NCBI GenBank assembly: GCA_005882635.1 | Contig: VBFG01000043.1 | Location: forward strand, 1,192 to 65,191 | Length of the DNA: 64,000 bases | Source: Chloroflexota bacterium | GTDB taxonomy: Bacteria; Chloroflexota; Limnocylindria; Limnocylindrales; CSP1-4 | Direction: 5' to 3' | Shown: in pieces, positions 30,888-43,958 of the stretch | How the letters are laid out: every line of letters starts with the position of its first letter | Numbering within the stretch: position 1 is the first letter of the stretch | The notes under the pieces: model-generated | What the model was told of the DNA's origin: nothing | The model's input: the letters and a program-made list of their open reading frames with translations, nothing else | The model's database searches: none | Program-made: the position numbers and the translations under genes

Positions 30888-32501
30888 TCAGACGGCTGCC
30901 GACGCTCCGCTGTCGGCCGCTCCGCCACCGCCACCCGAGCCCGACCGTCGCCGGCGACGCTTCCCGTGGGCGGCCCGGATCGGCGCCGGTGCGTCGGCGA
31001 TCGCAACGAGCAGCGTCTCGACCGACGGCGCCCGTGACGCGAACAAGTCGCAGAACAGGGTCACCAGCTCCGGATCGAACTGCGTCCCGGCGTGACGACG
31101 GAGCTCCTTGACCGCTTCGTCGTGGCTGATCGCCCGCTTGTAGGGCCGGTCGTGGGTCATCGCGTCGTAGGCATCGGCAATTGCGACGATCCGGGCACCC
31201 AGCGGGATGTCGGTGCCCCGCAGGCCGAACGGGTAGCCGTGCCCCGAGTAGCGCTCGTGGTGGTGGAGGATGATCGGGACGGCCTCCTTGAGCGCCGCCG
31301 CCTGTTCGAGGATGACCTGGCCGATCCGCGGGTGCTGGACGACCGTCCTCCACTCCGATGACGTCAGGGCGGCCGGCTTGTCCAGGATGTCCTCGGGGAC
31401 GGCGACCTTGCCCAGGTCGTGCAGGAGCGCCGCAGTCCGGATCCGCTCGATCTCGTTGACCGGCAGGTCGAGGCTGCGCGCCATCGAGGTAACGATCGAC
31501 GCGATCAGCGCCGACGGCTGGCCGCGATAGTGGGGCATCGGGGCGATGACCGAGGTCAGGCTCGCCGTCGCCGCCTCGCGCGCGGCCCGGCCGACCTCGA
31601 TCGCCAGCAGCCGCCCGGCCGGCGAGATCGGCGCGCGGGGCACCCGGGAGTCCTCGTCTGGCTCGGCGAAGATGTACGTCTGGTTGCGGCCGAGTGACTT
31701 GGCCGAATACATCGCGGCGTCGGCGTCGCGGACGAGGTTGTCGGTGCGGAGGGCACCACCGCTCCCGCCGGCGATTCCGATCGAGATCGTGACGCTGATC
31801 TCCTGGCCTGGCCCGATCGCGAACTTCTGCTTCGCGACGAGGTTCCTCAGCTTCTCGGTGAGGACGGCGCCGGCCTCGACGTCGGTCTCGGTCAGGAGGA
31901 GCATGAACTCCTCGCCACCGTACCGGCCGACCGTGTCGGTCGCCCGCAGGTTGCCCTGGATGACCTGGGCGACCCCCCGGAGCACGACGTCCCCGGCAGC
32001 ATGCCCGTACGAGTCGTTTACGGCCTTGAAGTGATCGATGTCGACGAAGGCCACCGACAGCGGTCGCCCGTAGCGGTTCGCCCGGTCGACCTCGTCGATC
32101 AGCGCGACCAGGAGCGTCTGGCGGTTGCTGACGCCGGTGAGCTTGTCCGTCGTCGCCGCATCGGTCGTCTCGACGAGGGCGATCGACAGGCGGTTGATGG
32201 CGCGGCTCAGCCGGCCTTCGAGGCCACCGCCCTTGGGCTTCGAGCGGACGTTGACCCCGAGCTCGCCGTCCGCCAGTCGTTCGAGCGCCTTGACGAGCCG
32301 CGGCAGCCGGAATCGCGCGTAGACGTAGACGAGCATCGCCGTCATCGACACACCGATCAGGCCCGCGATGATCGCGGCCAGGATCGACGGGACCCCCTCC
32401 GAGAACCACGAGTCGACCGCCCGCGGATTCGTGATCCACGCCACGATCAAGCTGAACGGGGCAAGGAGAGTCAGGCCCCCGAGCAGGCGCATCACGCCCA
32501 A
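30888..32501 (-). CDS. membrane-anchored diguanylate cyclase (GGDEF) fused to an HD-GYP phosphodiesterase domain
   Basis: Two N-terminal TM segments plus a HAMP-like linker. GGDEF domain has GGEEF and I-site RATD 5 residues upstream. HD-GYP domain has HDLGKV and HHERYSGHGYP. Start is ambiguous (TTG 32501, GTG 32495 or ATG 32492). Confidence 0.88.
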   Translation of the reverse strand: MGVMRLLGGLTLLAPFSLIVAWITNPRAVDSWFSEGVPSILAAIIAGLIGVSMTAMLVYVYARFRLPRLVKALERLADGELGVNVRSKPKGGGLEGRLSRAINRLSIALVETTDAATTDKLTGVSNRQTLLVALIDEVDRANRYGRPLSVAFVDIDHFKAVNDSYGHAAGDVVLRGVAQVIQGNLRATDTVGRYGGEEFMLLLTETDVEAGAVLTEKLRNLVAKQKFAIGPGQEISVTISIGIAGGSGGALRTDNLVRDADAAMYSAKSLGRNQTYIFAEPDEDSRVPRAPISPAGRLLAIEVGRAAREAATASLTSVIAPMPHYRGQPSALIASIVTSMARSLDLPVNEIERIRTAALLHDLGKVAVPEDILDKPAALTSSEWRTVVQHPRIGQVILEQAAALKEAVPIILHHHERYSGHGYPFGLRGTDIPLGARIVAIADAYDAMTHDRPYKRAISHDEAVKELRRHAGTQFDPELVTLFCDLFASRAPSVETLLVAIADAPAPIRAAHGKRRRRRSGSGGGGGAADSGASAAV

Positions 32502-32599
32502 AGGCTACCGGCCGGGCTCGTCCGGGCGGTCCCACCGGAGGTACCCCCGACGGGCGACCGAAGTCCCACCGGGTCCTCGCCTACGCCGGTCGGGCCTCC

Positions 32600-32646
32600 G
32601 TGACGGGCCGTTGCCGTCCGGTGACGGGCCGCCGCACTGCTATACT
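32600..32646 (+). promoter_or_regulatory. direct repeats plus an extended -10 element upstream of purA
   Basis: GTGACGGGCCG occurs at 32600-32610 and 32621-32631, a 21-bp phase. It is followed by TGc-TATACT (32638-32646). This implies a purA leader of about 190 nt. Confidence 0.4.
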
Positions 32647-32842
32647 CGCCGCGTCCTCGAACCGTCCGCGGGCCCGCCCGCCCTGACAGGAGACCGGCCG
32701 TTGCTCGAGGAAGGCGCGTGGCTCGTCCCGTGAGGCGTCTACGAGTCTTCGAACCGGAGGCGCTCCGCACGCGGGAGACCTGTATCTCGGTCTCGGAACC
32801 TCGGTTCCGGGGCCGTTTCGATTCTGTCGAGGCTCGCGCCTG

Positions 32843-34156
32843 ATGCCCGCCACGATCGTCGTCGGGCTGCAGTGGGGCGACGAGGGCAAGGGCAAGACCA
32901 CGGACTTCCTCGCCGAGCAGACCGACTTCGTCGTCCGCTACCAGGGCGGCGACAACGCCGGCCACACCGTCATGCTCGGCGACGAGGTGTTCAAGCTGCA
33001 CCTCGTCCCGTCGGGGATCCTCTATCCGCACATCGTCCCGGTCATCGGGCCCGGCGTCGTCGTCAACCCGGCGACCCTGATCGACGAGCTCGACGCCCTG
33101 GCCGCTCGCGGTATCGACACCTCACGCCTCCGCGCCAGCTTCGCCTGCCACCTGATCCTGCCGTACCACCGGGCGCTCGACGTCGCCCGCGAGACACGTC
33201 TGGCCGGGGCGAAGGTCGGGACGACAGGGCGGGGGATCGGGCCGGCCTACGAGGATCGAGCGGCGCGCACCGGCCTCCGGCTCGAGGACCTCCTCGACGC
33301 GCGGATCCTCCGGATGAAGCTCGACCGGGTCCTGCCGGAGAAGAACGCGGTCCTGGCCGCGCTGGGCGCGGAAGCGAGGTTCGAACCTGAGCCACTCGTC
33401 GAGCAGGCGCTGGCCTGGGGCCGCCGGCTCGCTCCGCACCTCGTCGACGTCACCTGGCTCGTCCAGGACGCCCTGGCTCGCGGCGACCACGTCCTGCTCG
33501 AGGGTGCGCAGGGGACGCTCCTGGACCTCGATCACGGGTCGTACCCGTTCGTGACTTCGTCGTCGCCGATCGCCGGCGGCGCCTGCACCGGCGGTGGGAT
33601 CGGCCCGCGCCAGGTCGACGAGGTTTTCGGGGTCATGAAGGCGTATGCGACCCGGGTGGGATCGGGGCCGTTCCCGACGGAGCTCGCCGACGACGTCGGG
33701 CTGGGGATCGCGGAGCGCGGTCGCGAGGTCGGCACGACGACCGGCCGGGCGCGACGGGTCGGCTGGTTCGACGCGGTGTCGGCCCGCTATGCGGTGGCGG
33801 TGAACAGCGTCAGCTCGATCATGCTGAACAAGCTCGACATCCTGTCAGGCGTCGACCCCATCCGGCTGTGCACCGCCTACCAGGTCGACGGCCGGCGGGT
33901 GGACGCCTGGCCCTCGTCGGCCGACCTGCTCGCCCGGGCGACGCCGGTCTACGAGGACTTCGCCGGCTGGTCTGAACCGATCCACGCCGTGCGATCGCTG
34001 GCGGACCTGCCGGATGCCGCTCGCCGCTACGTCACGGCCCTCGAGGAGTATGCCGGCGCGCCGATCGTCCTGGTGTCGGTGGGGCCGGAGCGGACGCAGA
34101 CGATCGAGCGGGCCTGGCGACCTGTCCGCAACCGTGTTCCGACGGTGGCCGGATGA
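32843..34156 (+). CDS. purA: adenylosuccinate synthetase
   Basis: P-loop GLQWGDEGKGKTTD, GGDNAGHTV and TTGRGIGPAYEDR. 437 aa. Confidence 0.95.
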   Translation: MPATIVVGLQWGDEGKGKTTDFLAEQTDFVVRYQGGDNAGHTVMLGDEVFKLHLVPSGILYPHIVPVIGPGVVVNPATLIDELDALAARGIDTSRLRASFACHLILPYHRALDVARETRLAGAKVGTTGRGIGPAYEDRAARTGLRLEDLLDARILRMKLDRVLPEKNAVLAALGAEARFEPEPLVEQALAWGRRLAPHLVDVTWLVQDALARGDHVLLEGAQGTLLDLDHGSYPFVTSSSPIAGGACTGGGIGPRQVDEVFGVMKAYATRVGSGPFPTELADDVGLGIAERGREVGTTTGRARRVGWFDAVSARYAVAVNSVSSIMLNKLDILSGVDPIRLCTAYQVDGRRVDAWPSSADLLARATPVYEDFAGWSEPIHAVRSLADLPDAARRYVTALEEYAGAPIVLVSVGPERTQTIERAWRPVRNRVPTVAG

Positions 34157-34389
34157 CGGCGATGCGGGCGACCGACGGGTGTCCGATCGGGCGCCGGACG
34201 ACCGAACCGACACCGGAGGGCCTCTTCATCCGCCCGTTCGGGCGCCGGACGACCGAACCGACTCCGGAGGGCCTCTTCATCCGCCCGTTCGGGCGCCGGA
34301 CGACCGAACCGACTCCGGAGGGCCTCTTCATCCGGCCGTTCGGGCGCCGGACGACGGGCAACACCGAATTCGGGCGGCTTCCGCGATGA
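34153..34389 (+). CDS. 78-aa repeat micro-protein (3 x GRRTTEPTPEGLFIRPF), hypothetical
   Basis: ATGA overlap with the purA stop and ATGA overlap with the purD start. GC3 of the repeat unit is 15/17 in this frame. Both inter-repeat SNPs are synonymous in this frame only. No recognisable domain. Confidence 0.55.
   Translation: MTAMRATDGCPIGRRTTEPTPEGLFIRPFGRRTTEPTPEGLFIRPFGRRTTEPTPEGLFIRPFGRRTTGNTEFGRLPR
34189..34355. repeat. 51-bp tandem repeat, 3 full copies plus a 14-bp partial copy
   Basis: Units lie at 34189-34239, 34240-34290 and 34291-34341 and differ at two positions only (aca/act, cgc/cgg). The unit length is a multiple of 3. Confidence 0.95.
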
Positions 34390-35693
34390 CCCGATCGACC
34401 CAACCCACGCGGATCCTGGTCGTCGGCGGTGGTGGCCGGGAGCACGCGCTGGCGTGGAAGCTGGCCGCCGAGCCCGGCGTGAACGAGGTGGTCGTGGCGC
34501 CCGGATCGGACGCGATCGCCCGCGAGCCGCGCGTTCGACGCGTCGCCCTCGATCCGCTCGACGCAGGGGCGGTCGTGGCCGTCGCGCGGGAGCGCGCGGT
34601 CGAGCTGGCCGTGATCGGACCGGAGGCCCCCCTCGCCGCCGGCCTGGCGGATGCCTTGCGCGCGGCCGGCGTCCCGACTGTCGGACCGAGCGCCGCCGCC
34701 GCCAGGATCGAGAGCTCGAAGGCCTTCTGCCGCGAGGTCGCCGAGGCGGCCGGCGTCCCGATGGCGGCCGGCCGCGCGTTCGCGGCCGCCGATCGCGACA
34801 GGGCTCGCGCCTACGCGACGGATCTGGCCAAGCGGGGCGGCGTCGTCGTCAAGGCCGACGGGCTGGCCGGCGGCAAGGGCGTGACCGTCTGCGACACCGT
34901 CGAGGAGGCAGAAGTCGCGCTCGCCGCCGTCGACGGACCGCTCGTCATCGAGGAGCGGCTCACCGGTCGCGAGGCCAGCCTCATCGCCATCTGCGACGGT
35001 GGCGAGGGCGTGATCGCCCTCCCGCCGGCCCGGGACCACAAGCGGCTCCTGGACGGTGATCGGGGCCCGAACACGGGCGGCATGGGCGCTTACGCCCCGC
35101 TCCCCGATGTCGCCGATGCCGACCTCGGCGCGTTGCTGGATGCGTTCCATCGCCCGCTCCTCCGAGAGCTGAGGCGGCGCGGAGCGCCGTTCCGCGGCCT
35201 CCTCTACGCCGGCCTGATGCTGACGGCGGACGGTCCGCGACTCCTCGAGTGCAATGCCCGCCTCGGCGATCCCGAGGCCCAGGTCGTCCTGCCCCAGGTC
35301 TCGGTCCCGCTGGGACCTGTCCTCGTCGCGGCGGCGTCGGGGTCGCTCGGGACGAGCGCCGCCGACCGGCTGCCGACCCTGCCGGGTGCCACCGTCGGGA
35401 TCGTCCTCGCGAGCGCCTCGTACCCGGCTGCCGCGACCGCGCCCCAGCCGATCGACGGGATCGACGAAGCGGTCGCCCGCGGCGCCATCGTCTTCCACGC
35501 CGCGACCCGCGCGGTTGAAGGCCGGTGGCAGACCGCCGGCGGGCGCGTCCTGACCGTGGTCGCCCGGGGCGCGGATCTCGCCCAGGCCGCCGAGGCCGCC
35601 GATCGGGCCGCCGACGCGATCTCGTGGCCCGGCCTGCAGCGGCGCCACGACATCGGCCGCCTGGCGGCGGTCGGGGCGGGAGCATCGGCGTGA
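34386..35693 (+). CDS. purD: phosphoribosylamine-glycine ligase
   Basis: MTRSTQPTRILVVGGGGREHALAWKLA is a PurD N-terminus, followed by an ATP-grasp body. The longer in-frame track ORF starting at 34014 was rejected. Confidence 0.92.
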   Translation: MTRSTQPTRILVVGGGGREHALAWKLAAEPGVNEVVVAPGSDAIAREPRVRRVALDPLDAGAVVAVARERAVELAVIGPEAPLAAGLADALRAAGVPTVGPSAAAARIESSKAFCREVAEAAGVPMAAGRAFAAADRDRARAYATDLAKRGGVVVKADGLAGGKGVTVCDTVEEAEVALAAVDGPLVIEERLTGREASLIAICDGGEGVIALPPARDHKRLLDGDRGPNTGGMGAYAPLPDVADADLGALLDAFHRPLLRELRRRGAPFRGLLYAGLMLTADGPRLLECNARLGDPEAQVVLPQVSVPLGPVLVAAASGSLGTSAADRLPTLPGATVGIVLASASYPAAATAPQPIDGIDEAVARGAIVFHAATRAVEGRWQTAGGRVLTVVARGADLAQAAEAADRAADAISWPGLQRRHDIGRLAAVGAGASA

Positions 35694-37012
35694 TCCGCCG
35701 CTACACGCTTCCCGAGATGGGCGCGATCTGGACCGAGGAGGCCCGGTTCGAGGCCATGCTCCGCGTCGAGCTCGCCGTGAGTCGCGCCCAGGCGGCCCGG
35801 GGCACCGTGCCGGCGGACGCCCTCGCCGCGCTGGAGGCACGGGCCGCCGTGAACACCGAACGGATCGCCGAGATCGAGAAGACGACCGATCACGACGTCA
35901 TCGCCTTCGTCAGCCAGGTCGCCGAGACCGTTGGCCCCGAGGGACGCTATCTCCATCTCGGCCTGACGAGCAGCGACGTCGTCGATACGGCCCTCGCGCT
36001 CCAGCTCCGCGACGCCGGCGAGCTCCTGATCCGGGCGACGGACGGACTCCTGGCGGCCCTGATCGCGCGGGCCCGGAGCGAGGCCGACACGCTGATGATG
36101 GGCCGGACCCACAGCGTCCACGCCGAGCCGATCACGTTGGGGCTGAAGCTCGCGGGCTGGGCGTTCGAGGTCGAGCGAGGCCGCCGCCGCCTCACGGACG
36201 CCGTCGACGAGATCGCCACCGGCAAGATCTCGGGGCCGGTCGGGACGTACAGCCATCTCGGCCCGGACGTCGAGGCGGAGGTTCTCGCCGAGCTCGGACT
36301 CCACGCCGACCCGGCCAGCACGCAGATCGTCCAACGCGACCGCCACGCCGCGCTCCTCACTGCGATCGCGATCGTCGGCGGCTCGATCGAGCGCTTCGCG
36401 ACCGAGATCCGGAACCTCCAGCACACCGAGATCGGCGAGGTCATGGAGCCGTTCAAGGCGGGCCAGAAGGGCTCCAGCGCGATGCCCCACAAGCGCAACC
36501 CGATCGTCGCGGAGCGGATCGCCGGCCTGGCCAGACTGCTGCGTGGCTACGCCGCGACCGCCCTCGAGGACCAGCCGCTGTGGCACGAGCGTGACATCAG
36601 CCACAGCAGCGCCGAGCGGGTGATCCTGCCCGACGCGACGATCGTCCTCCACTACATGCTCGTCCGGATGACCGGCCTGATCGAGGGCCTGGTCGTTCGG
36701 CCGGAGCGGATGCGCGAGAACATCGAGCGGGGGCTCGGCCTCCATGCGAGCAGCCGGGTCCTCGGGCTGCTCGTCGAGCGGGGCGGGATGAGCCGCGAGG
36801 CGGCCTACGCGATCGTCCAGCGCGCGGCCCTTCGCGCCGCCGACGAGCGGAAGCCGCTGCGCGATCTCCTCGGTATCGATCCGGAGGTCGCGAAACGCCT
36901 GAGCCTGGCGGACCTCGATGCCAGCTTCGACGATCGCACCTTCCTCCGCCATGTGCCCGCCGTGATCGCCCGTCTCGACAGCCTGGAGGCCCAGCTCGAT
37001 GCCGCTCGCTGA
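35690..37012 (+). CDS. purB: adenylosuccinate lyase
   Basis: GTG 35690 overlaps the pur[21 protein letters not shown]-terminus and signature [11 protein letters not shown]. Confidence 0.93.
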
Positions 37013-37904
37013 CACGTTCCTGCGGTCCGGCAAGGTCCGCGACCTCTATGCCGTGTCCGACGACCGGCTGCTGCTCGTCGCCTCGGACCGGCTGAGCGCG
37101 TTCGACGTCGTCCTGCCGACCGAGATCCCGGACAAGGGCCGCGTCCTGACGGGCCTGTCCCGGTTCTGGTTCGCCCGGACGGCAGATCTCATGCCGAACC
37201 ACCTCGTCGGCGTGGCCCCGGAGGAGGTCCCCGGCGGCGCGCCCGCCGACGCCGACGACCTGCGCGGCCGGATGATGCTCTGCCGTCGCGTCCAGCCGCT
37301 GCCCATCGAGGTGATCGTGCGGGGCTATCTCGCCGGCTCGGGCTGGAAGGACTACGGCCGGACGGGCGCGGTCTGCGGCATTCCCCTGCCGGCGGGCCTC
37401 CGCGAGAGCGACCGCCTGCCGGAGCCGCTGTTCACCCCTTCGACGAAGGCCGAGCAGGGCCACGACGAGAACATCTCCCTGGACGAAGCGGCCGCCCTCG
37501 TCGGGCGCGAGGTGGCCGAGCGGGTCGCCGCGCTTGCGATCGCCCTCTATCGGCGCGGATCCGAGATCGCCGAGCCGGCTGGGATCATCCTCGCCGACAC
37601 GAAGTTCGAGTTCGGCACGGACCCGGCGACCGGCGAGCTGATCCTGATCGACGAGGTCCTGACCCCCGATTCGTCCCGCTTCTGGGACGCCTCGGACTAC
37701 GAGCCTGGTCGAGCCCAGGCCAGCTTCGACAAGCAGTACGTGCGTGACTGGCTGGAGACCCAGGACTGGGACAAGACGCCGCCGGGTCCTGAGCTGCCGC
37801 CGGATGTGGTCGCCGGCACGCGGTCCCGCTACGTCGAGGCGTTCGAGAGGATCACCGGGTCGAGCTTCCAGCGCTACTTGGATGACGACGTGGTCGGGGA
37901 GTAG
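36999..37904 (+). CDS. purC: phosphoribosylaminoimidazole-succinocarboxamide (SAICAR) synthase
   Basis: GKVRDLY...LLLVASDRLSAFDVVL and LADTKFEFG motifs. 14-nt overlap with purB. Confidence 0.93.
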   Translation: MPLADTFLRSGKVRDLYAVSDDRLLLVASDRLSAFDVVLPTEIPDKGRVLTGLSRFWFARTADLMPNHLVGVAPEEVPGGAPADADDLRGRMMLCRRVQPLPIEVIVRGYLAGSGWKDYGRTGAVCGIPLPAGLRESDRLPEPLFTPSTKAEQGHDENISLDEAAALVGREVAERVAALAIALYRRGSEIAEPAGIILADTKFEFGTDPATGELILIDEVLTPDSSRFWDASDYEPGRAQASFDKQYVRDWLETQDWDKTPPGPELPPDVVAGTRSRYVEAFERITGSSFQRYLDDDVVGE

Positions 37905-37912
37905 GGAGAGCG

Positions 37913-38191
37913 ATGGAGATCCGTTTCGCGGTCAATGTCCGGCCAAAGCCGGGGATCCTCGACCCCCAGGGCCGGGCGGTCGAGGGCAGCCTCGGCCACC
38001 TCGGGATCTCCGGCGTCGGCGAGGTCCGCGTCGGGCGGCGGATCGAGCTGACCGTGACGGCGGACGACGAGGCATCGGCGCGGGCGGTCGTCGACCGGCT
38101 CGCCGCCGAGCTGCTGTCGAACCCGCTCATCGAGGCCTACGACGTCGAGGTCCTCGAAGGCGCGTCATCGCTCATGAGCACGCGCGCGTGA
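37913..38191 (+). CDS. purS: FGAM synthase subunit PurS
   Basis: 92 aa. VRPKPGILDPQGRAVEGSLGHLG is typical of PurS. Confidence 0.9.
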   Translation: MEIRFAVNVRPKPGILDPQGRAVEGSLGHLGISGVGEVRVGRRIELTVTADDEASARAVVDRLAAELLSNPLIEAYDVEVLEGASSLMSTRA

Positions 38192-38940
38192 GCGTCCGCA
38201 TCGGCGTCGTGATCTTCCCCGGCTCGAACCGGGACGTCGACGCCCTCAACGCCCTCGACGTGTCCGGCGCCCAGGCGGTCCCGCTGTGGCACGAGCAGGC
38301 GTCGCTCGACAGCGTGGCGGGTGTGCTGATCCCGGGCGGCTTCGCCTATGGCGACTACCTCCGTGCGGGCGTGATCGCCCGATTCAGCCCGATCATGCGG
38401 GCCGTCGCCGGCTTCGCCGCGGACGGCGGCCTCGTCCTCGGGATCTGCAACGGCTTCCAGGTCCTGACCGAGGCCCACCTCCTGCCCGGTGCGCTCCTCC
38501 GCAACCGCGGGCTCCGGTTCGTATCGCGCGAGGTGGCGATCGCCGCCGAGCGAACCGACACGGCGTTCAGCCACCGGCTGGGCGAGCGGCGCCCGCTGCG
38601 CATGCCGGTCGCCCACGGCGAGGGCTGCTTCTTCGCCGACGAGGCGACGCTCGACCAGCTCGAGGCGGACGGCCAGGTCCTCTTCCGCTACGTCGACCCG
38701 GCGACCGGGGCGACGGCGGGCGGCGAGGGGGACGCTGCCAATCCGAACGGCTCGCTCCGCGGAATCGCCGGGGTCATCAACCGGGACGGCAACGTCGCGG
38801 GGTTGATGCCGCACCCGGAGACGGCCGTCGAGACGATCCTCGGCTCCGCCGACGGGCTCGGGATCATCTCGTCGTTCGTGACATCGGCCGCCGAGCGTGA
38901 ACAGGCAGCCGGCGCGGCTCTCGTGTCGGCGGCCCGATGA
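38188..38940 (+). CDS. purQ: FGAM synthase glutaminase subunit PurQ
   Basis: GTG 38188 overlaps the purS TGA. Catalytic contexts LGICNGFQ and GLMPHPE. Confidence 0.92.
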   Translation: MSVRIGVVIFPGSNRDVDALNALDVSGAQAVPLWHEQASLDSVAGVLIPGGFAYGDYLRAGVIARFSPIMRAVAGFAADGGLVLGICNGFQVLTEAHLLPGALLRNRGLRFVSREVAIAAERTDTAFSHRLGERRPLRMPVAHGEGCFFADEATLDQLEADGQVLFRYVDPATGATAGGEGDAANPNGSLRGIAGVINRDGNVAGLMPHPETAVETILGSADGLGIISSFVTSAAEREQAAGAALVSAAR

Positions 38941-41336
38941 CGGTCGTGGCCGAGCGACCCGGCACGTCCCAGCCGACCACCGACGCGCTCCATCGCCGGC
39001 TCGGCCTGACCGACGAAGAGCTCGCGGCCATCCGCGACCGCCTGAGCGGGCGCGACCCGAACGAGCTCGAGCTCGCGATGTTCAGCGTCATGTGGAGCGA
39101 ACACTGCTCGTACAAGAGCTCGCGGCCGCTGCTCCGAACGCTCCCGACGGGGACGGCCGCCGACGGCGTCGTCGCGGGCCCGGGCGAGAACGCCGGCGTG
39201 ATCTCGATCGGCGACGGTCTGGCCGTGGCGTTCAAGATCGAATCGCACAACCACCCAAGTGCGGTCGAGCCGACCCAGGGCGCCGCGACCGGCGTCGGCG
39301 GGATCCTCCGCGACATCTTCACGATGGGCGCGCGGCCGATCGCCGTGCTCGACGCGCTGCGCTTCGGCGACCCGGCGGATCCGCGGACGAGGCACCTCGT
39401 CGACGGGGTCGTCAAGGGGGTCGGCGGCTATGGCAACTGCGTCGGCGTGCCGACGATCGGCGGCGAGCTCGTCTTCGACCCGTCGTACGGCGGCAACCCG
39501 CTCGTGAACGTCATGGCGATCGGCCTGCTCGACGAGCGCGACCTGACGCGGGCCGCCGCGCCGGGGCTGGGCAACCACGTCGTCCTGTTCGGCTCGACGA
39601 CCGGTCGCGACGGGATCGGCGGCGCGAGCGTGCTCGCCAGCGCGACGTTCGCCGACGCGGATGCGTCGAAGAGGCCGTCCGTGCAGGTCGGGGATCCATT
39701 CGCGGAAAAGCTGTTGATCGAGGCGTCGCTCGAGCTCATCCGCAACGGGCTCGTCGTCGGGCTCCAGGACCTGGGCGCCGGCGGGATCACCTGCGCCACG
39801 TCCGAGACGGCCGACCGGGCCGGGACAGGCATGCGCATCGAGCTGGCAGCGATCCCGCGGCGGGAGCCCGGCATGGAGCCTTTCGAGGTGATGATCAGCG
39901 AGTCGCAGGAGCGGATGCTCGCGATCGTCGAGCCGGACCGCTGGGACGCAGTCCGAGCCGTCTGCGAACGATGGGGTCTGCCCGTCGCGCTGATCGGCCG
40001 AGTCACGGCCGACGGCGACCTGACCGTGGTCGGGGACGACGGCGCCGAGCTCGCCCGAATCCCGGCGGCCGCGTTGACGAGCGACGCGATCGTCCACGAG
40101 CGGGTCGCGTCGCCGCCGGTCCGTCGCCGTGCCGCGCCGGCGCCGGGCGCCCCGGCCACGGCATCCGACGGGCTTCCCGAGCGCGGCATGGACCCGGGCG
40201 CCGTGCTCGTCGCCCTCCTCGGGTCGGCCAACCTCGCCAGCCGCCGGGCGGTCTTCGAGCAGTACGACTCGACGGTCCAGGCGAACACCGTCGAGGGGCC
40301 CGGTCACGGCGCGGCCGTGATCCGGATCAAGGGCACGACGAAGGGCCTCGTCGCGGCGACCGACGCGAACCAGTCGGTCGGAGCGCTGGATCCGTGGCTC
40401 GGCGCGGTCCTGAGTGTCGCCGAGGCGACCCGCAACGTGGCCATCACCGGGGCGCGGCCGCTCGGCGTCACGAACTGCCTGAACTACGGCGACCCGACCC
40501 GGCCGGAGGCGTTCTGGCAGCTCGCCGAGGGCGTCCGCGGCGTCGGTGACGCGTGCCGGGCGCTGGGCGTCCCCGTCACCGGCGGGAACGTCTCCCTCTA
40601 CAACGAATCGCCGGGCGGCGCGATCGCCCCCACCGCGGAGATCGGCGTCGTCGGGCTGCTCGACGACGTCGCCGCGCTCGTCCGGCCCGGCTGGCGCGCC
40701 AGCGGCGACCGGATCCTGATCGTCGGCGAGGCCACGCCCGGGCTCGCCGGCAGCGCCTATGCCGATCTCGCTGGTCTCGCCGCCGAGGACGGTCCGCCCT
40801 CGATCGACCTCGAGCAGGAGCGCCGCGTCCAGGCGTTCGTCCGCGCGGCAGCCGGCCGCGGCCTCCTCGCCTCGGCCCAGGACGTCTCGGGCGGTGGGCT
40901 CGCCGTCGCGCTCGCCGAATGCTGCCTCTGGGCCGACGGGACCGGCTCCGCCCCGTCGGGCTCCGCGGGTCTCGGCGCGCTGGTCCGGCTGCCGGTCGCG
41001 AGCTCACCGGCCGTCGACCTGTTCGGTGAGAGCCCGTCGCGCGTGGTCATGTCCGCGGCTCGGCGCCACGTCCCGGCGCTGGTTCTGCTGGCCCGCCAGC
41101 ACGGCCTGCCGATCGAGGACGTCGGGGAGGTCGGCGGGATCGGCACGAGCGTCGTCGACGAGGACGCCGATGCACCGCCGCCGCGCCTCGTCGTCGAGCT
41201 GCATGGCGCCGGTGCCACCGGCGCGGCCGAGGATCGTGGCAGCCGCGTCGCCGACGCCCTGATCGTCGGTCTCGACGAGCTCCGCCACGCCTGGGATGGC
41301 GGGCTCGAGCGGGCGCTCGGCTGGGAGCGACGCTGA
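38937..41336 (+). CDS. purL: FGAM synthase subunit PurL
   Basis: 799 aa. SEHCSYKSS, ESHNHPS and DLGAGGI motifs. ATGA overlap with purQ. Confidence 0.94.
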   Translation: MTVVAERPGTSQPTTDALHRRLGLTDEELAAIRDRLSGRDPNELELAMFSVMWSEHCSYKSSRPLLRTLPTGTAADGVVAGPGENAGVISIGDGLAVAFKIESHNHPSAVEPTQGAATGVGGILRDIFTMGARPIAVLDALRFGDPADPRTRHLVDGVVKGVGGYGNCVGVPTIGGELVFDPSYGGNPLVNVMAIGLLDERDLTRAAAPGLGNHVVLFGSTTGRDGIGGASVLASATFADADASKRPSVQVGDPFAEKLLIEASLELIRNGLVVGLQDLGAGGITCATSETADRAGTGMRIELAAIPRREPGMEPFEVMISESQERMLAIVEPDRWDAVRAVCERWGLPVALIGRVTADGDLTVVGDDGAELARIPAAALTSDAIVHERVASPPVRRRAAPAPGAPATASDGLPERGMDPGAVLVALLGSANLASRRAVFEQYDSTVQANTVEGPGHGAAVIRIKGTTKGLVAATDANQSVGALDPWLGAVLSVAEATRNVAITGARPLGVTNCLNYGDPTRPEAFWQLAEGVRGVGDACRALGVPVTGGNVSLYNESPGGAIAPTAEIGVVGLLDDVAALVRPGWRASGDRILIVGEATPGLAGSAYADLAGLAAEDGPPSIDLEQERRVQAFVRAAAGRGLLASAQDVSGGGLAVALAECCLWADGTGSAPSGSAGLGALVRLPVASSPAVDLFGESPSRVVMSAARRHVPALVLLARQHGLPIEDVGEVGGIGTSVVDEDADAPPPRLVVELHGAGATGAAEDRGSRVADALIVGLDELRHAWDGGLERALGWERR

Positions 41337-42835
41337 TGTGCGGCGTGTTCGGCGTCGTCATGCCGCGTGGTGCGGGCTCGGTCGCGAGCGGCGACCAGAG
41401 CGCCGCCGCCCTTGCCTCGCTGGGGCTGTTCGCGCTCCAGCATCGCGGCCAGGAATCGGCCGGGGTCGCGGTCAGCGACGGCGAGCAGCTGATGCTCTAC
41501 AAGGACCTCGGGATGATCGCGTCGGTCCTCGACGAGCGGCGGTTGCCGTCGCTGCGGGGCGAGCTGGCGATCGCCCACTGTCGCTACTCGACCACCGGCT
41601 CGACGGTCTGGGAGAACGCCCAGCCGACGTTCCGTCTCGGCCCGCGACGAGCGCTCGCGATCGGCCACAACGGCAACCTCGTCAACACCCGTGAGCTCCT
41701 CGGCCAGCTGGCCGGCGGCCGCGGGCGACTGCCGGCCTCGACCGACACCGAGCTCCTGACCGCCCTCCTCGCCGACGAGCCGGCGGCCGACACGGTCGAC
41801 GCCCTCATCCGCGTCCTGCCCCGGGTTCGCGGCGCGTACAGCCTCGTGATCCTCGACGAGCGGCGGGTGATCGGCGTTCGCGATCCGCACGGCTTCCGGC
41901 CGCTCGTCCTCGGGCGGCTGCCGGTCGCGTCCTCCGCGGATGGCGCCGTGGCACCCGGGCTCTGGGGCGATTCGGACGACGAGGCGCCGGGATCGGGCTG
42001 GGTCCTCTCGAGCGAGACCACCGGCCTCGACATCGTCGGCGCCGAGTTCGTCCGGGACGTCGAGCCGGGCGAGATCGTCGTCCTCGAGGCCGGTCGACCG
42101 CCGCGGTCGGTCCGCTTCGCGCCGGCCACGCCCGCCCTGTGCGTCTTCGAGCTGATCTATTTCGCCCGGCCCGACTCGTACCTGGAGGGCCGCAACCTGT
42201 ACGAGGCGCGACGACGGATGGGCGAGGAGCTGGCTGGCGAGCATCCCGCCGAGACAGATCTGGTGATGCCCGTTCCGGACACCGGCGCCCCCGCGGCAGC
42301 GGGCTACGCCGAGGCCTCCGGAATCCCGTATCGCGAGGGCCTCGTCCGCAACCGCTACACCGGGCGGACGTTCATCCAGCCGAGCCAGACGATGCGCCAT
42401 CGCGGCGTGACGTTGAAGCTGAATCCGCTCCGCGAGGTCGTCCGCGGGAAACGGCTGACCGTCGTCGACGACTCGATCGTGCGCGGAACGACGACCAAAC
42501 AGATCGTGGCGCTGCTCCGACGGGCAGGCGCGGCCGAGGTCCACGTCCGGATCAGCGCACCGCCGATCTACCACCCGTGCTTCTACGGGATCGACACCCA
42601 GGTCGAGACGGAGCTGATCGCGGCCACCCAGTCGATCGACGAGATCCGTGACTTCGTCGGCGCCGATTCCCTCGGCTACCTGTCGATCCGCGGGGTCCTC
42701 GCCGCCCTCGACCTGCCGTACGACCGGTTCTGCTTCGCCTGCTTCGACGGCAACTACCCGGAGCCGGTCCCGTACGACACGGCCTCACGCAAGTTCCTCC
42801 TCGAGGAGGAAGGAATGCTCGCCGGCCGTGGCTGA
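41336..42835 (+). CDS. purF: amidophosphoribosyltransferase
   Basis: N-terminal nucleophile MCGVFGV, PRTase motif VVDDSIVRGTT. TGATG junction with purL. Confidence 0.94.
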   Translation: MCGVFGVVMPRGAGSVASGDQSAAALASLGLFALQHRGQESAGVAVSDGEQLMLYKDLGMIASVLDERRLPSLRGELAIAHCRYSTTGSTVWENAQPTFRLGPRRALAIGHNGNLVNTRELLGQLAGGRGRLPASTDTELLTALLADEPAADTVDALIRVLPRVRGAYSLVILDERRVIGVRDPHGFRPLVLGRLPVASSADGAVAPGLWGDSDDEAPGSGWVLSSETTGLDIVGAEFVRDVEPGEIVVLEAGRPPRSVRFAPATPALCVFELIYFARPDSYLEGRNLYEARRRMGEELAGEHPAETDLVMPVPDTGAPAAAGYAEASGIPYREGLVRNRYTGRTFIQPSQTMRHRGVTLKLNPLREVVRGKRLTVVDDSIVRGTTTKQIVALLRRAGAAEVHVRISAPPIYHPCFYGIDTQVETELIAATQSIDEIRDFVGADSLGYLSIRGVLAALDLPYDRFCFACFDGNYPEPVPYDTASRKFLLEEEGMLAGRG

Positions 42836-43958
42836 GCGGCCGGCCTACATCGCCTCCGGCGTCGACGTCGACGCCGGTCAGCGGGCCGTCGAGCTGATGC
42901 GGTCGGCGATCGACGGCACCCGCCGGCCGGAGGTCCTCGGCGAGATCGGCGGCTTCGGATCGGCCGTCACGATCCCGCCCGGCTACCGGTCCCCGGTCCT
43001 CATCTCGTCCACGGACGGCGTCGGGACGAAGACCGCGATCGCGACCGCGCTCCGGCGCTACGACACGATCGGCCGGGACCTCGTCGCGATGTGCGCCGAC
43101 GACGTCGCCTGCAGCGGCGCGGAGCCGCTCTTCTTCCTCGACTACGTCGCGGTCGGCGTCCTCGATCCGGACCAGGTCGCCGAGCTCGTCGGCGGAATCG
43201 CGGCGGGCTGCCTCGATGCAGGCTGCGCACTCGTCGGCGGCGAGACCGCCGAGCATCCCGGACTGATGCAGCCCGGCGAGTTCGACCTGGCCGGGTTCTG
43301 CGTCGGGGTCGTCGAGGCCGACGAGCGGATCGACGGGAGCGCCGCCCGCGTCGGCGACGCGATCCTCGGCCTCCGCTCCAGCGGCCTCCACAGCAACGGT
43401 TACTCGCTCGTGCGTTCGCTCATCGCGAGCTGGGATCTCGACCTGGGGCGTCCGTACCAGGAGCAGCTCCAGCGAACGCTCGGCACGACGGCGGCCACCA
43501 AGGCCATCGCCGCCGAACCGGAACACGCGCTCGCGACGCTCGGCGACGTGCTCCTGACGCCGACGACGATCTACGCCCCGCTCCTGGCGGGGCTCCGGGC
43601 GGAGCTCCGGACGGCAGGCCAGGACATCCGCGGACTGGCCCACATCACCGGCGGCGGGCTCGTCGCGAACGTGCCTCGGGCGCTGCCCCCCTCGCTCGTC
43701 GCCCGCGTGGATCCGCGCGGATGGGAGGTTCCGTCGATCGAGCGACTCGTTGCCGCTCTCGGTGGGCTCGACGATGCGGAGGTTCGGGCGACGTTCAACG
43801 CCGGCGTCGGCATGGTCGTCGTCGTCGCTCAGGAGGCAAGCCACCGGGCGATCACGTGGCTGCGTGGCCAGGGCCTCGACGCCGTGGTGATGGGCGACGT
43901 CCTGCCCGACGACGGCGGGCCCCGGTACGTCGAGGACCCGATCGGGCCGCGGCGGTGA
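42828..43958 (+). CDS. purM: phosphoribosylformylglycinamidine cyclo-ligase (AIR synthase)
   Basis: GTG 42828, an 8-nt overlap with purF. AYIASGVDVDAGQRAVE, DGVGTK and FFLDY motifs. Confidence 0.92.
   Translation: MAERPAYIASGVDVDAGQRAVELMRSAIDGTRRPEVLGEIGGFGSAVTIPPGYRSPVLISSTDGVGTKTAIATALRRYDTIGRDLVAMCADDVACSGAEPLFFLDYVAVGVLDPDQVAELVGGIAAGCLDAGCALVGGETAEHPGLMQPGEFDLAGFCVGVVEADERIDGSAARVGDAILGLRSSGLHSNGYSLVRSLIASWDLDLGRPYQEQLQRTLGTTAATKAIAAEPEHALATLGDVLLTPTTIYAPLLAGLRAELRTAGQDIRGLAHITGGGLVANVPRALPPSLVARVDPRGWEVPSIERLVAALGGLDDAEVRATFNAGVGMVVVVAQEASHRAITWLRGQGLDAVVMGDVLPDDGGPRYVEDPIGPRR

Follow-up and report, generated by a model that had tools for sequence, protein, structure and literature searches.

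Between purA and purD of an uncultured soil bacterium of the Chloroflexota lies a small open reading frame (ORF) of 78 codons (34153..34389, + strand) that carries an array of a 51-nt tandem repeat and overlaps both of its neighbors. Coordinates are those of the window, i.e., the whole 64-kb stretch of contig VBFG01000043.1 that was analyzed (G+C 70.7%). We propose that this ORF is probably a translational-coupling relay, which would hand ribosomes over from purA to purD, with selection acting on an open, in-register frame and not on the peptide; the proposal draws on a comparison of the junction across related lineages. The feature is real and its explanation is an ordinary one of a known kind, distinguished by an unusually clear comparative case of frame-only selection; it is not a new micro-protein. 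To our knowledge, a frame-only selection signature of this kind has not been described in Chloroflexota.

The purA-purD junction and the proposed relay

The upstream gene, purA (adenylosuccinate synthetase, 437 residues; 32843..34156, + strand), was identified from the ORF list, the Pfam domain PF00709 on the identical gene of metagenome contig L001 and an alignment of the C-terminus with relatives; it ends in ...GGA TGA, with the stop at 34154-34156. The ATG of the relay (bridging) ORF at 34153 shares the tetranucleotide ATGA (34153-34156) with this stop, and its own TGA (34387-34389) shares a second ATGA (34386-34389) with the purD start codon at 34386. The downstream gene, purD (phosphoribosylamine-glycine ligase, 435 residues; 34386..35693, + strand), is supported by the ORF list, by its product on other contigs and by relatives, and starts eight codons upstream of the conserved RILVVGGGGREHA motif, as it does in those relatives. 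Its Shine-Dalgarno (SD)-like match is weak (-5.8 kcal/mol against CACCUCCUUU).

The body of the ORF is a tandem array (34183..34355, + strand) for which Tandem Repeats Finder gives a period of 51, 3.4 copies, 97% matches and a score of 325, all other repeats in the window scoring 59 or less. The unit is found three times at no more than one mismatch, and dinucleotide shuffles yield 0 matches. In frame, the units at 34189-34239, 34240-34290 and 34291-34341 each translate to GRRTTEPTPEGLFIRPF, and the predicted product holds three copies per molecule of the tryptic peptide TTEPTPEGLFIR. A preliminary description of the window, made from its letters alone, had reported the 78-codon ORF with ATGA overlaps at both ends, three identical 17-residue repeats from a 51-bp unit present about 3.3 times, and a purD lacking a convincing SD; on all these points our analysis agrees with it.

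The wider setting is an operon of eleven cistrons (32843-43958 and beyond) in the order purA-x-purD-purB-purC-purS-purQ-purL-purF-purM-purN/H, with junction distances of -4, -4, -4, -14, +8, -4, -4, -1, -8 and -4, such that stop/start overlaps chain nearly all of them. Same-strand overlaps of -4 (NTGA) or -1, which are typical of cistrons coupled by termination-reinitiation, are thus present at this locus; purS alone among the pur cistrons has a gap, and its SD is GGGAGAG.

Briefly, we advance the following mechanism. Close to the 5' end of purD, an old insertion would have broken up an ancestral direct overlap, purA-ATGA-purD. A ribosome terminating purA at the UGA 34154-34156 would reinitiate on the overlapping AUG at 34153, read the spacer, stop at the UGA 34387-34389 and reinitiate once more on the overlapping purD AUG at 34386, with the relay keeping purD within the chain of translationally coupled pur cistrons. 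Translation of the ORF, and the dependence of purD on it, are inferred. The three near-identical 51-nt units would represent a recent, species-specific expansion, via slippage or unequal recombination, from one copy of an older imperfect ~51-nt repeat in the spacer. Because 51 nt make up 17 codons and the unit is stop-free in the relay frame, the copy number would be free to vary without breaking the relay; such frame-neutral changes would in turn allow a minisatellite to persist at the purA-purD site.

Conservation of the frame and constraint on the product

For comparison, 80 metagenome loci were fetched via an alignment of the PurA C-terminus, along with the contexts of PurD homologs and one genome locus, and their junctions were analyzed by script. 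A PurD scan of genome contigs was saturated by universal motifs (best relative 60% identity), and the nearest relatives were taken from the metagenomes. The PurD relatives are at most 73% identical, the named ones belonging to Candidatus Limnocylindrales or Chloroflexota. Their junctions fall into three types. In the commonest (type A), the purA stop and the purD start overlap directly by NTGA; a short non-overlapping gap (type B) occurs only in a separate clade; and in type C a spacer separates the two genes. Wherever a type C spacer has a start overlapping the purA stop, the resulting ORF terminates on the conserved purD start with an overlap of NTGA (in one case TGATG), and this start in type C junctions always lies eight codons before RILVVGG.

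The relay ORFs of the relatives are 6, 10, 24, 35, 60, 60, 62, 63, 65, 66, 72, 78 and 83 codons long, to which the species of the window adds forms of 61 and 78 codons. Even spacers of just 17 and 29 nt (L108, L111, L121, L130, L118, L122, L164) hold 6- or 10-codon mini-ORFs with NTGA at both ends, the 6-codon form being found in five sequences from two tree lineages and the 10-codon form in two lineages. The spacer lengths take at least nine different values, every one of which is 3n+2. Across 12 diverged lineages with spacer-spanning ORFs (24-83 codons), the relay frame contains 0 stops, as against 10 and 9 for the two remaining forward frames. Of the long spacers, only that of L113 lacks an overlapping start, and even there the homologous frame runs uninterrupted from an internal GTG up to the purD ATGA. 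The coupling by termination-reinitiation suggested in the preliminary description is thus supported by the relatives with a spacer, in which the frame between the purA stop and the start of purD always stays open. As regards the conservation it asked after, the frame and the double overlap are kept wherever the start overlaps the purA stop, whereas the spacer itself is missing in many relatives and its length varies.

The same loci provide a view of the product. If the 17-residue repeat peptide were itself active as a functional micro-protein, as the preliminary description had considered in suggesting an undescribed repeat micro-protein, its orthologs might be expected to show an excess of third-position substitutions and a raised G+C content at third codon positions (GC3), the marks of a conserved small protein family. 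Neither was found. Counting substitutions at codon positions 1/2/3, the relay ORF gave 13/12/15 between L094 and L099 (purA 10/5/40), 9/6/7 between L107 and L113 (purD 6/4/29), 21/12/25 between L098 and L126 (purD 16/16/39) and 16/7/15 between L126 and L110 (purA 7/4/29). The GC3 of the relatives' relay ORFs is 0.70-0.78, which equals their bulk G+C, as against 0.85-0.90 for purD. The orthologous ORFs, ranging from 24 to 83 codons, encode peptides that are hardly alignable between lineages, and the ORF is missing entirely from many close relatives. Among 5.8 billion proteins, the sole one resembling the product is its own 61-residue allele, shorter by one unit, and a search for Pfam domains in the peptide found none. 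Amino-acid constraint is thus nearly absent. A conserved frame, combined with the lack of a third-position excess and a GC3 at the bulk level, points to selection on the frame and not on the product, which appears to be at most weakly constrained.

Some of what speaks for an active peptide comes from the window. Its relay ORF has a GC3 of 0.87, and the preliminary description rightly counted G/C at 15 of 17 third positions per unit in the relay frame as against 11 of 17 when read in frame with purD; the figure of 15 of 17 is equaled by one antisense frame, and hence the count does not identify the coding strand. It was equally right that ACA/ACT and CGC/CGG, the only two changes from unit to unit, alter no residue when read in the relay frame and are non-synonymous in that of purD; for two changes only, the chance expectation is ~1/9. 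These arguments are weak because they are based on two substitutions and on a single 17-codon unit, which the GC3 signal counts thrice. Further, an exhaustive phmmer search recovered P0130 and P0141, two more ORFs from soil (read-level catalogs SRR6185503 and SRR2546425) whose 17-residue tandem repeats are related, taking the form FAHSAGEPAPEAPFLRP x3 and FGRRATE..PER.L.RR x3.5. They could be counted in favor of a functional peptide, and they suggest that the same unit has expanded in parallel in other lineages. The other matches of that search (P0122, P0137 and similar) proved to be unrelated repeat proteins. Taken together, we consider an active repeat peptide very unlikely.

A different use of the same DNA would be an N-terminal extension of PurD from the GTG at 34178-34180, with the repeat read in the purD frame as APDDRTDSGGPLHPPVR. 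That frame is indeed open back to 34014, but it contains stops within the spacer in six of the 12 relatives, all PurD homologs begin ~8 residues before RILVVGG, no database protein has the APDDRTDSGGPLHPPVR-frame reading, and gene callers picked 34386 on all nine other contigs of the species; we accord such an extension hardly any credence.

Several observations weigh against the relay, and some of them would favor an untranslated intergenic minisatellite or structured spacer, in which the high G+C would leave the frame open incidentally and purD would initiate independently. A 78-codon open frame is not rare at 70% G+C: when the window spacer is dinucleotide-shuffled, the relay frame remains open in 82% of the shuffles, and the spacer itself lacks stops in each of its three forward frames. 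Taken by itself the window is no proof, and it is the relatives that carry the case. For these, the probability of an open frame times 1/3, multiplied over the 12 lineages as if they were independent, comes to ~10^-9, which overstates the support since the relatives are phylogenetically non-independent. Several of the relatives' spacers also contain long imperfect hairpins with z-scores of -2.4 to -3.5 relative to shuffles (L099 1764-1945, L107 598-785, L126 298-488, L090 2783-3000 and L113 2741-2872; the arms in L090 read GCGTTACGTCGAA...TTCGACGTAACGC). Their consensus structure receives modest support, with compensatory changes in 13 of 36 pairs, many pairs broken and a covariation term of +0.33. 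In addition, the spacers are slower to diverge than purA third positions (e.g., 20% vs. 31%), which together with the hairpins implies some constraint at the nucleotide or RNA level beyond the relay alone. The strength of the SD was uninformative as a separator of the junction types. Finally, the pooled relay substitutions number 37 at codon position 2 versus 59 and 62 at positions 1 and 3 (chi-square p ~0.03 from four partly overlapping pairs); this slight conservation of position 2, which would also suit an active peptide, makes a weak peptide-level or stop-avoidance constraint possible.

Yet an untranslated spacer would explain neither the confinement of stops to the other two frames, nor lengths that are always 3n+2 despite taking so many values, nor the NTGA or TGATG overlaps that are always found at both ends, and the weak SD match of purD fits poorly with independent initiation. 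The window spacer, for its part, is not more stable than its shuffles (z +0.7 and +1.1), and an Rfam search of positions 32500-35000 and of the spacers of ten relatives' loci returned no match at E <= 1; it thus has neither an Rfam match nor a fold beyond shuffles, and the hairpin present in relatives is lost from it. The sole Rfam match in the relatives' loci, Atu_Ti3 (E 0.13, L094), was set aside as it lies ~2.6 kb downstream of the junction. We accordingly regard independent initiation of purD behind an untranslated spacer as improbable, and a relay frame kept by selection appears to be the better account of the comparative data.

Copy-number alleles and the origin of the spacer

The array varies within the species. 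The exact 78-residue product was called on three independent metagenome contigs (L001-L003), and a 61-residue form, short by exactly one 17-residue unit, on six (L004-L009), which together with the ORF list and the two overlaps underpins the ORF call. Soil samples ERZ28573530, ERZ27285635 and JGI 3300026536 are the source of the contigs. With the window included, the 78-codon allele is thus seen on four sequences and the 61-codon allele on six, corresponding to 3.4 or 2.4 array copies by the same count. In their flanks the nine contigs match the window at 99.4-99.9% identity, which places all ten sequences in one species. The ACA/ACT site sits in different units on different contigs, and the flanking single-nucleotide haplotypes are mixed across the 61- and 78-codon alleles, with one linked site at 36082. 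The repeat is a variable-number tandem repeat (VNTR) and not an assembly artifact: the recent in-frame VNTR that the preliminary description had envisaged is borne out by two alleles in one species, and the artifact that it had also allowed for is dispelled by the reproduction of the repeat count on independent assemblies. The one reservation is that the 61-codon allele, though seen in six assemblies, might conceivably have arisen by collapse of short reads.

The closest relative, L096, is instructive as to how the spacer might have arisen. It has a direct purA/purD junction without a spacer, and its purD start reads ATGACGGCGATGCGGGCGACC joined to CAGCCGACGCGGATCC (also written ATGACGGCGATGCGGGCGACC joined to CAGCCGACGCGG), i.e., MTAMRAT followed by QPTRILVV. 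Codons 1-7 of the relay ORF (34153..34173, + strand), MTAMRAT, are the same as codons 1-7 of purD at this spacer-free site. The BLAST alignment of L096 with the window stops exactly at 34173 and restarts at 34396, and the 227-nt segment present only in the window (34174..34400, + strand; 227 = 3n+2) has the 5-nt sequence CGACC as a direct repeat at its bounds (34169-34173 and 34396-34400). L096 (1-5210) is itself a mosaic, 91% identical to the window through purA up to the junction and 80% beyond, and is either a recombinant or a chimeric contig with its breakpoint exactly at the junction; as a result, insertion in the window and deletion in L096 are not distinguishable from L096. Spacer-free sites are not confined to it, since many relatives have the direct overlap.

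In other lineages, the first ~17 nt of the relay ORF repeat the first ~17 nt of purD, with 14/17 matches in L110 and 13/17 in L094 (control 5.2 +/- 2.2), indicating a spacer flanked by a duplicated purD start region that includes the second ATGA. The idea that the entire spacer is a tandem copy of the 5' part of purD that has since decayed was considered and rejected: in 11 of 12 cases the spacer aligned locally with the initial 400 nt of purD no better than shuffles did, and only the first ~20 nt are duplicated. The long spacers group within one clade in a rough neighbor-joining tree, a few members of which have a direct overlap; this fits one old insertion followed by losses, and repeated insertion may also be possible.

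The spacers of L094, L099, L126, L110 and L098 are mutually homologous (E 1e-24 to 1e-3), as are those of the pairs L106/L109 and L107/L113. L126, L110, L098, L094 and L099 each contain two imperfect copies of a ~17-codon motif, RPTRQTTAE..P...F, to which the window unit is similar, and in an nhmmer search with that unit the non-self matches fell only at those purA-purD junctions of relatives (E 0.15-0.29). Likewise, the tail of the relay ORF and its diverged last unit (34342..34385, + strand; GRRTTGNTEFGRLPR) contain, in alignment with relatives, CCGAATTCGG, which is shared with the L098 spacer; this last unit is probably an older, unexpanded copy of the repeat. The imperfect repeat of the relatives and its likeness to the window unit suggest that an old repeat has recently re-expanded in the window to give its three near-identical units.

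An origin compatible with the relay is that the spacer is a copy of a mobile element, similar to the interspersed repetitive units known from mycobacteria (MIRUs) or to miniature inverted-repeat transposable elements (MITEs), which would land on start codons together with a coupled ORF of its own. Filled and empty sites occur among close relatives, the insert lies between direct repeats (ATGA on either side, CGACC for the window and as much as 14/17 nt for L110) and the relatives' spacers have G+C-rich long inverted repeats, seen as reverse-strand self-matches and hairpins; all three are MIRU traits (PMC3184786 and PMC12548453). However, a second copy is wanting: the window has no further copy of the 51-nt unit, nhmmer searches with 12 spacer queries over 1.1 Mb of fetched DNA found matches at purA-purD junctions only, and protein searches in five open frames, including those with the four other open repeat frames (none at E <= 1), recovered no other instance. 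Moreover, long spacers grouped in one clade fit a single old insertion plus losses equally well. Hence, we hold a mobile origin to be possible, if tentative.

Related systems, broader meaning and further features

The closest known system is the mycobacterial MIRU. MIRU-VNTRs, described by Supply et al. 1997 as summarized in PMC12548453 and PMC3184786, comprise units of 40-100 bp in operon intergenic regions, whose ORF ends overlap the neighboring genes; filled and empty sites occur, with tetranucleotide direct repeats, and the units bear G+C-rich inverted repeats (PMC3184786). They are thought to insert at start codons with the ORF coupled at a -4 spacing, minimizing the effect on expression (PMC12548453). 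The present locus resembles them in having a tandem unit within that size range (51 nt) with a strain-variable copy number (3.4/2.4 copies), in its placement between co-directional operon genes with an internal ORF overlapping the flanking stop and start at -4, in its empty and filled sites with short direct repeats (ATGA, CGACC and the 13-14/17 nt of L094/L110), in the G+C-rich inverted repeats of its related copies and in the proposed role of keeping the downstream gene translated. It differs in that MIRUs occupy ~40-50 loci per genome, whereas one locus was found here in the window, the fetched loci and the protein searches, even if one copy per 64 kb is still compatible with MIRU density. 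It also differs in its host, a Limnocylindrales-like member of the Chloroflexota, the likeness considered here being one of arrangement, and in that orthologous spacers persist across a clade, their frame conserved through many length changes. We know of no documented case of such clade-wide frame conservation among MIRUs. The locus may thus be called MIRU-like in its working, and is a candidate for membership in a MIRU-like mobile family.

Two other comparisons are apposite. Short ORFs that serve only to drive a downstream gene have been described by Shell et al. 2015 and Huber et al. 2019, 2023, as cited in PMC12548453. With such NTGA-coupled ORFs the relay shares the -4 overlaps, here at both junctions, the weak downstream SD and a short ORF without sign of a functional product; it differs in being sandwiched between two enzyme genes and filled by a VNTR in place of forming an upstream leader, and the dependence of purD on it is inferred. 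The Rickettsia palindromic elements, RUP and ERIC-like repeats (PMC3184786) are also small open-frame repeats in or at the edge of coding regions that leave expression undisturbed. In contrast to the present spacer, which is out of the purD frame (3n+2) and forms a separate cistron, they are fused in frame into the host protein.

In evolutionary terms, the relay would offer a natural example of selection for translation itself as opposed to its product, with ORF sequence drifting freely, as does its length (6 to 83 codons), while the frame and both overlaps are always kept. It would also extend an arrangement of the MIRU type, in which an open-frame minisatellite is coupled to the genes on either side, from mycobacteria to an uncultured soil Chloroflexota lineage. 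For annotation, it counsels caution, as small genes of this type are labeled hypothetical proteins and are probably relay cistrons. A more elaborate role, in which the copy number (two or three full units, possibly more) sets the passage of ribosomes from purA to purD and thereby acts as a population-level tuner of the ratio of adenosine monophosphate (AMP)-branch to de novo-branch enzymes, or in which the repeat peptide or the relatives' hairpin is regulatory in itself, strikes us as unlikely. Were purD output to change with the copy number, the repeat would amount to a simple, heritable means of tuning expression.

Three further features of the window may be recorded. First, purN and purH are seemingly fused (window from 43955 onward; L001 from 19803) into one 754-residue product with Formyl_trans_N, MGS and AICARFT_IMPCHas domains. 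Second, the purA leader contains a terminator-like hairpin of 12 pairs followed by a T-run (32788-32825, + strand), ~20 nt 5' of the purA start and without an Rfam match, which could be an attenuator. Third, a 10-codon ORF on the - strand (1352-1384), encoding VRRRGAGVAR before its stop codon, has GTGA at both ends and lies between two long minus-strand ORFs; it is the only other small ORF with a double overlap in the window, which has ~74 long ORFs.

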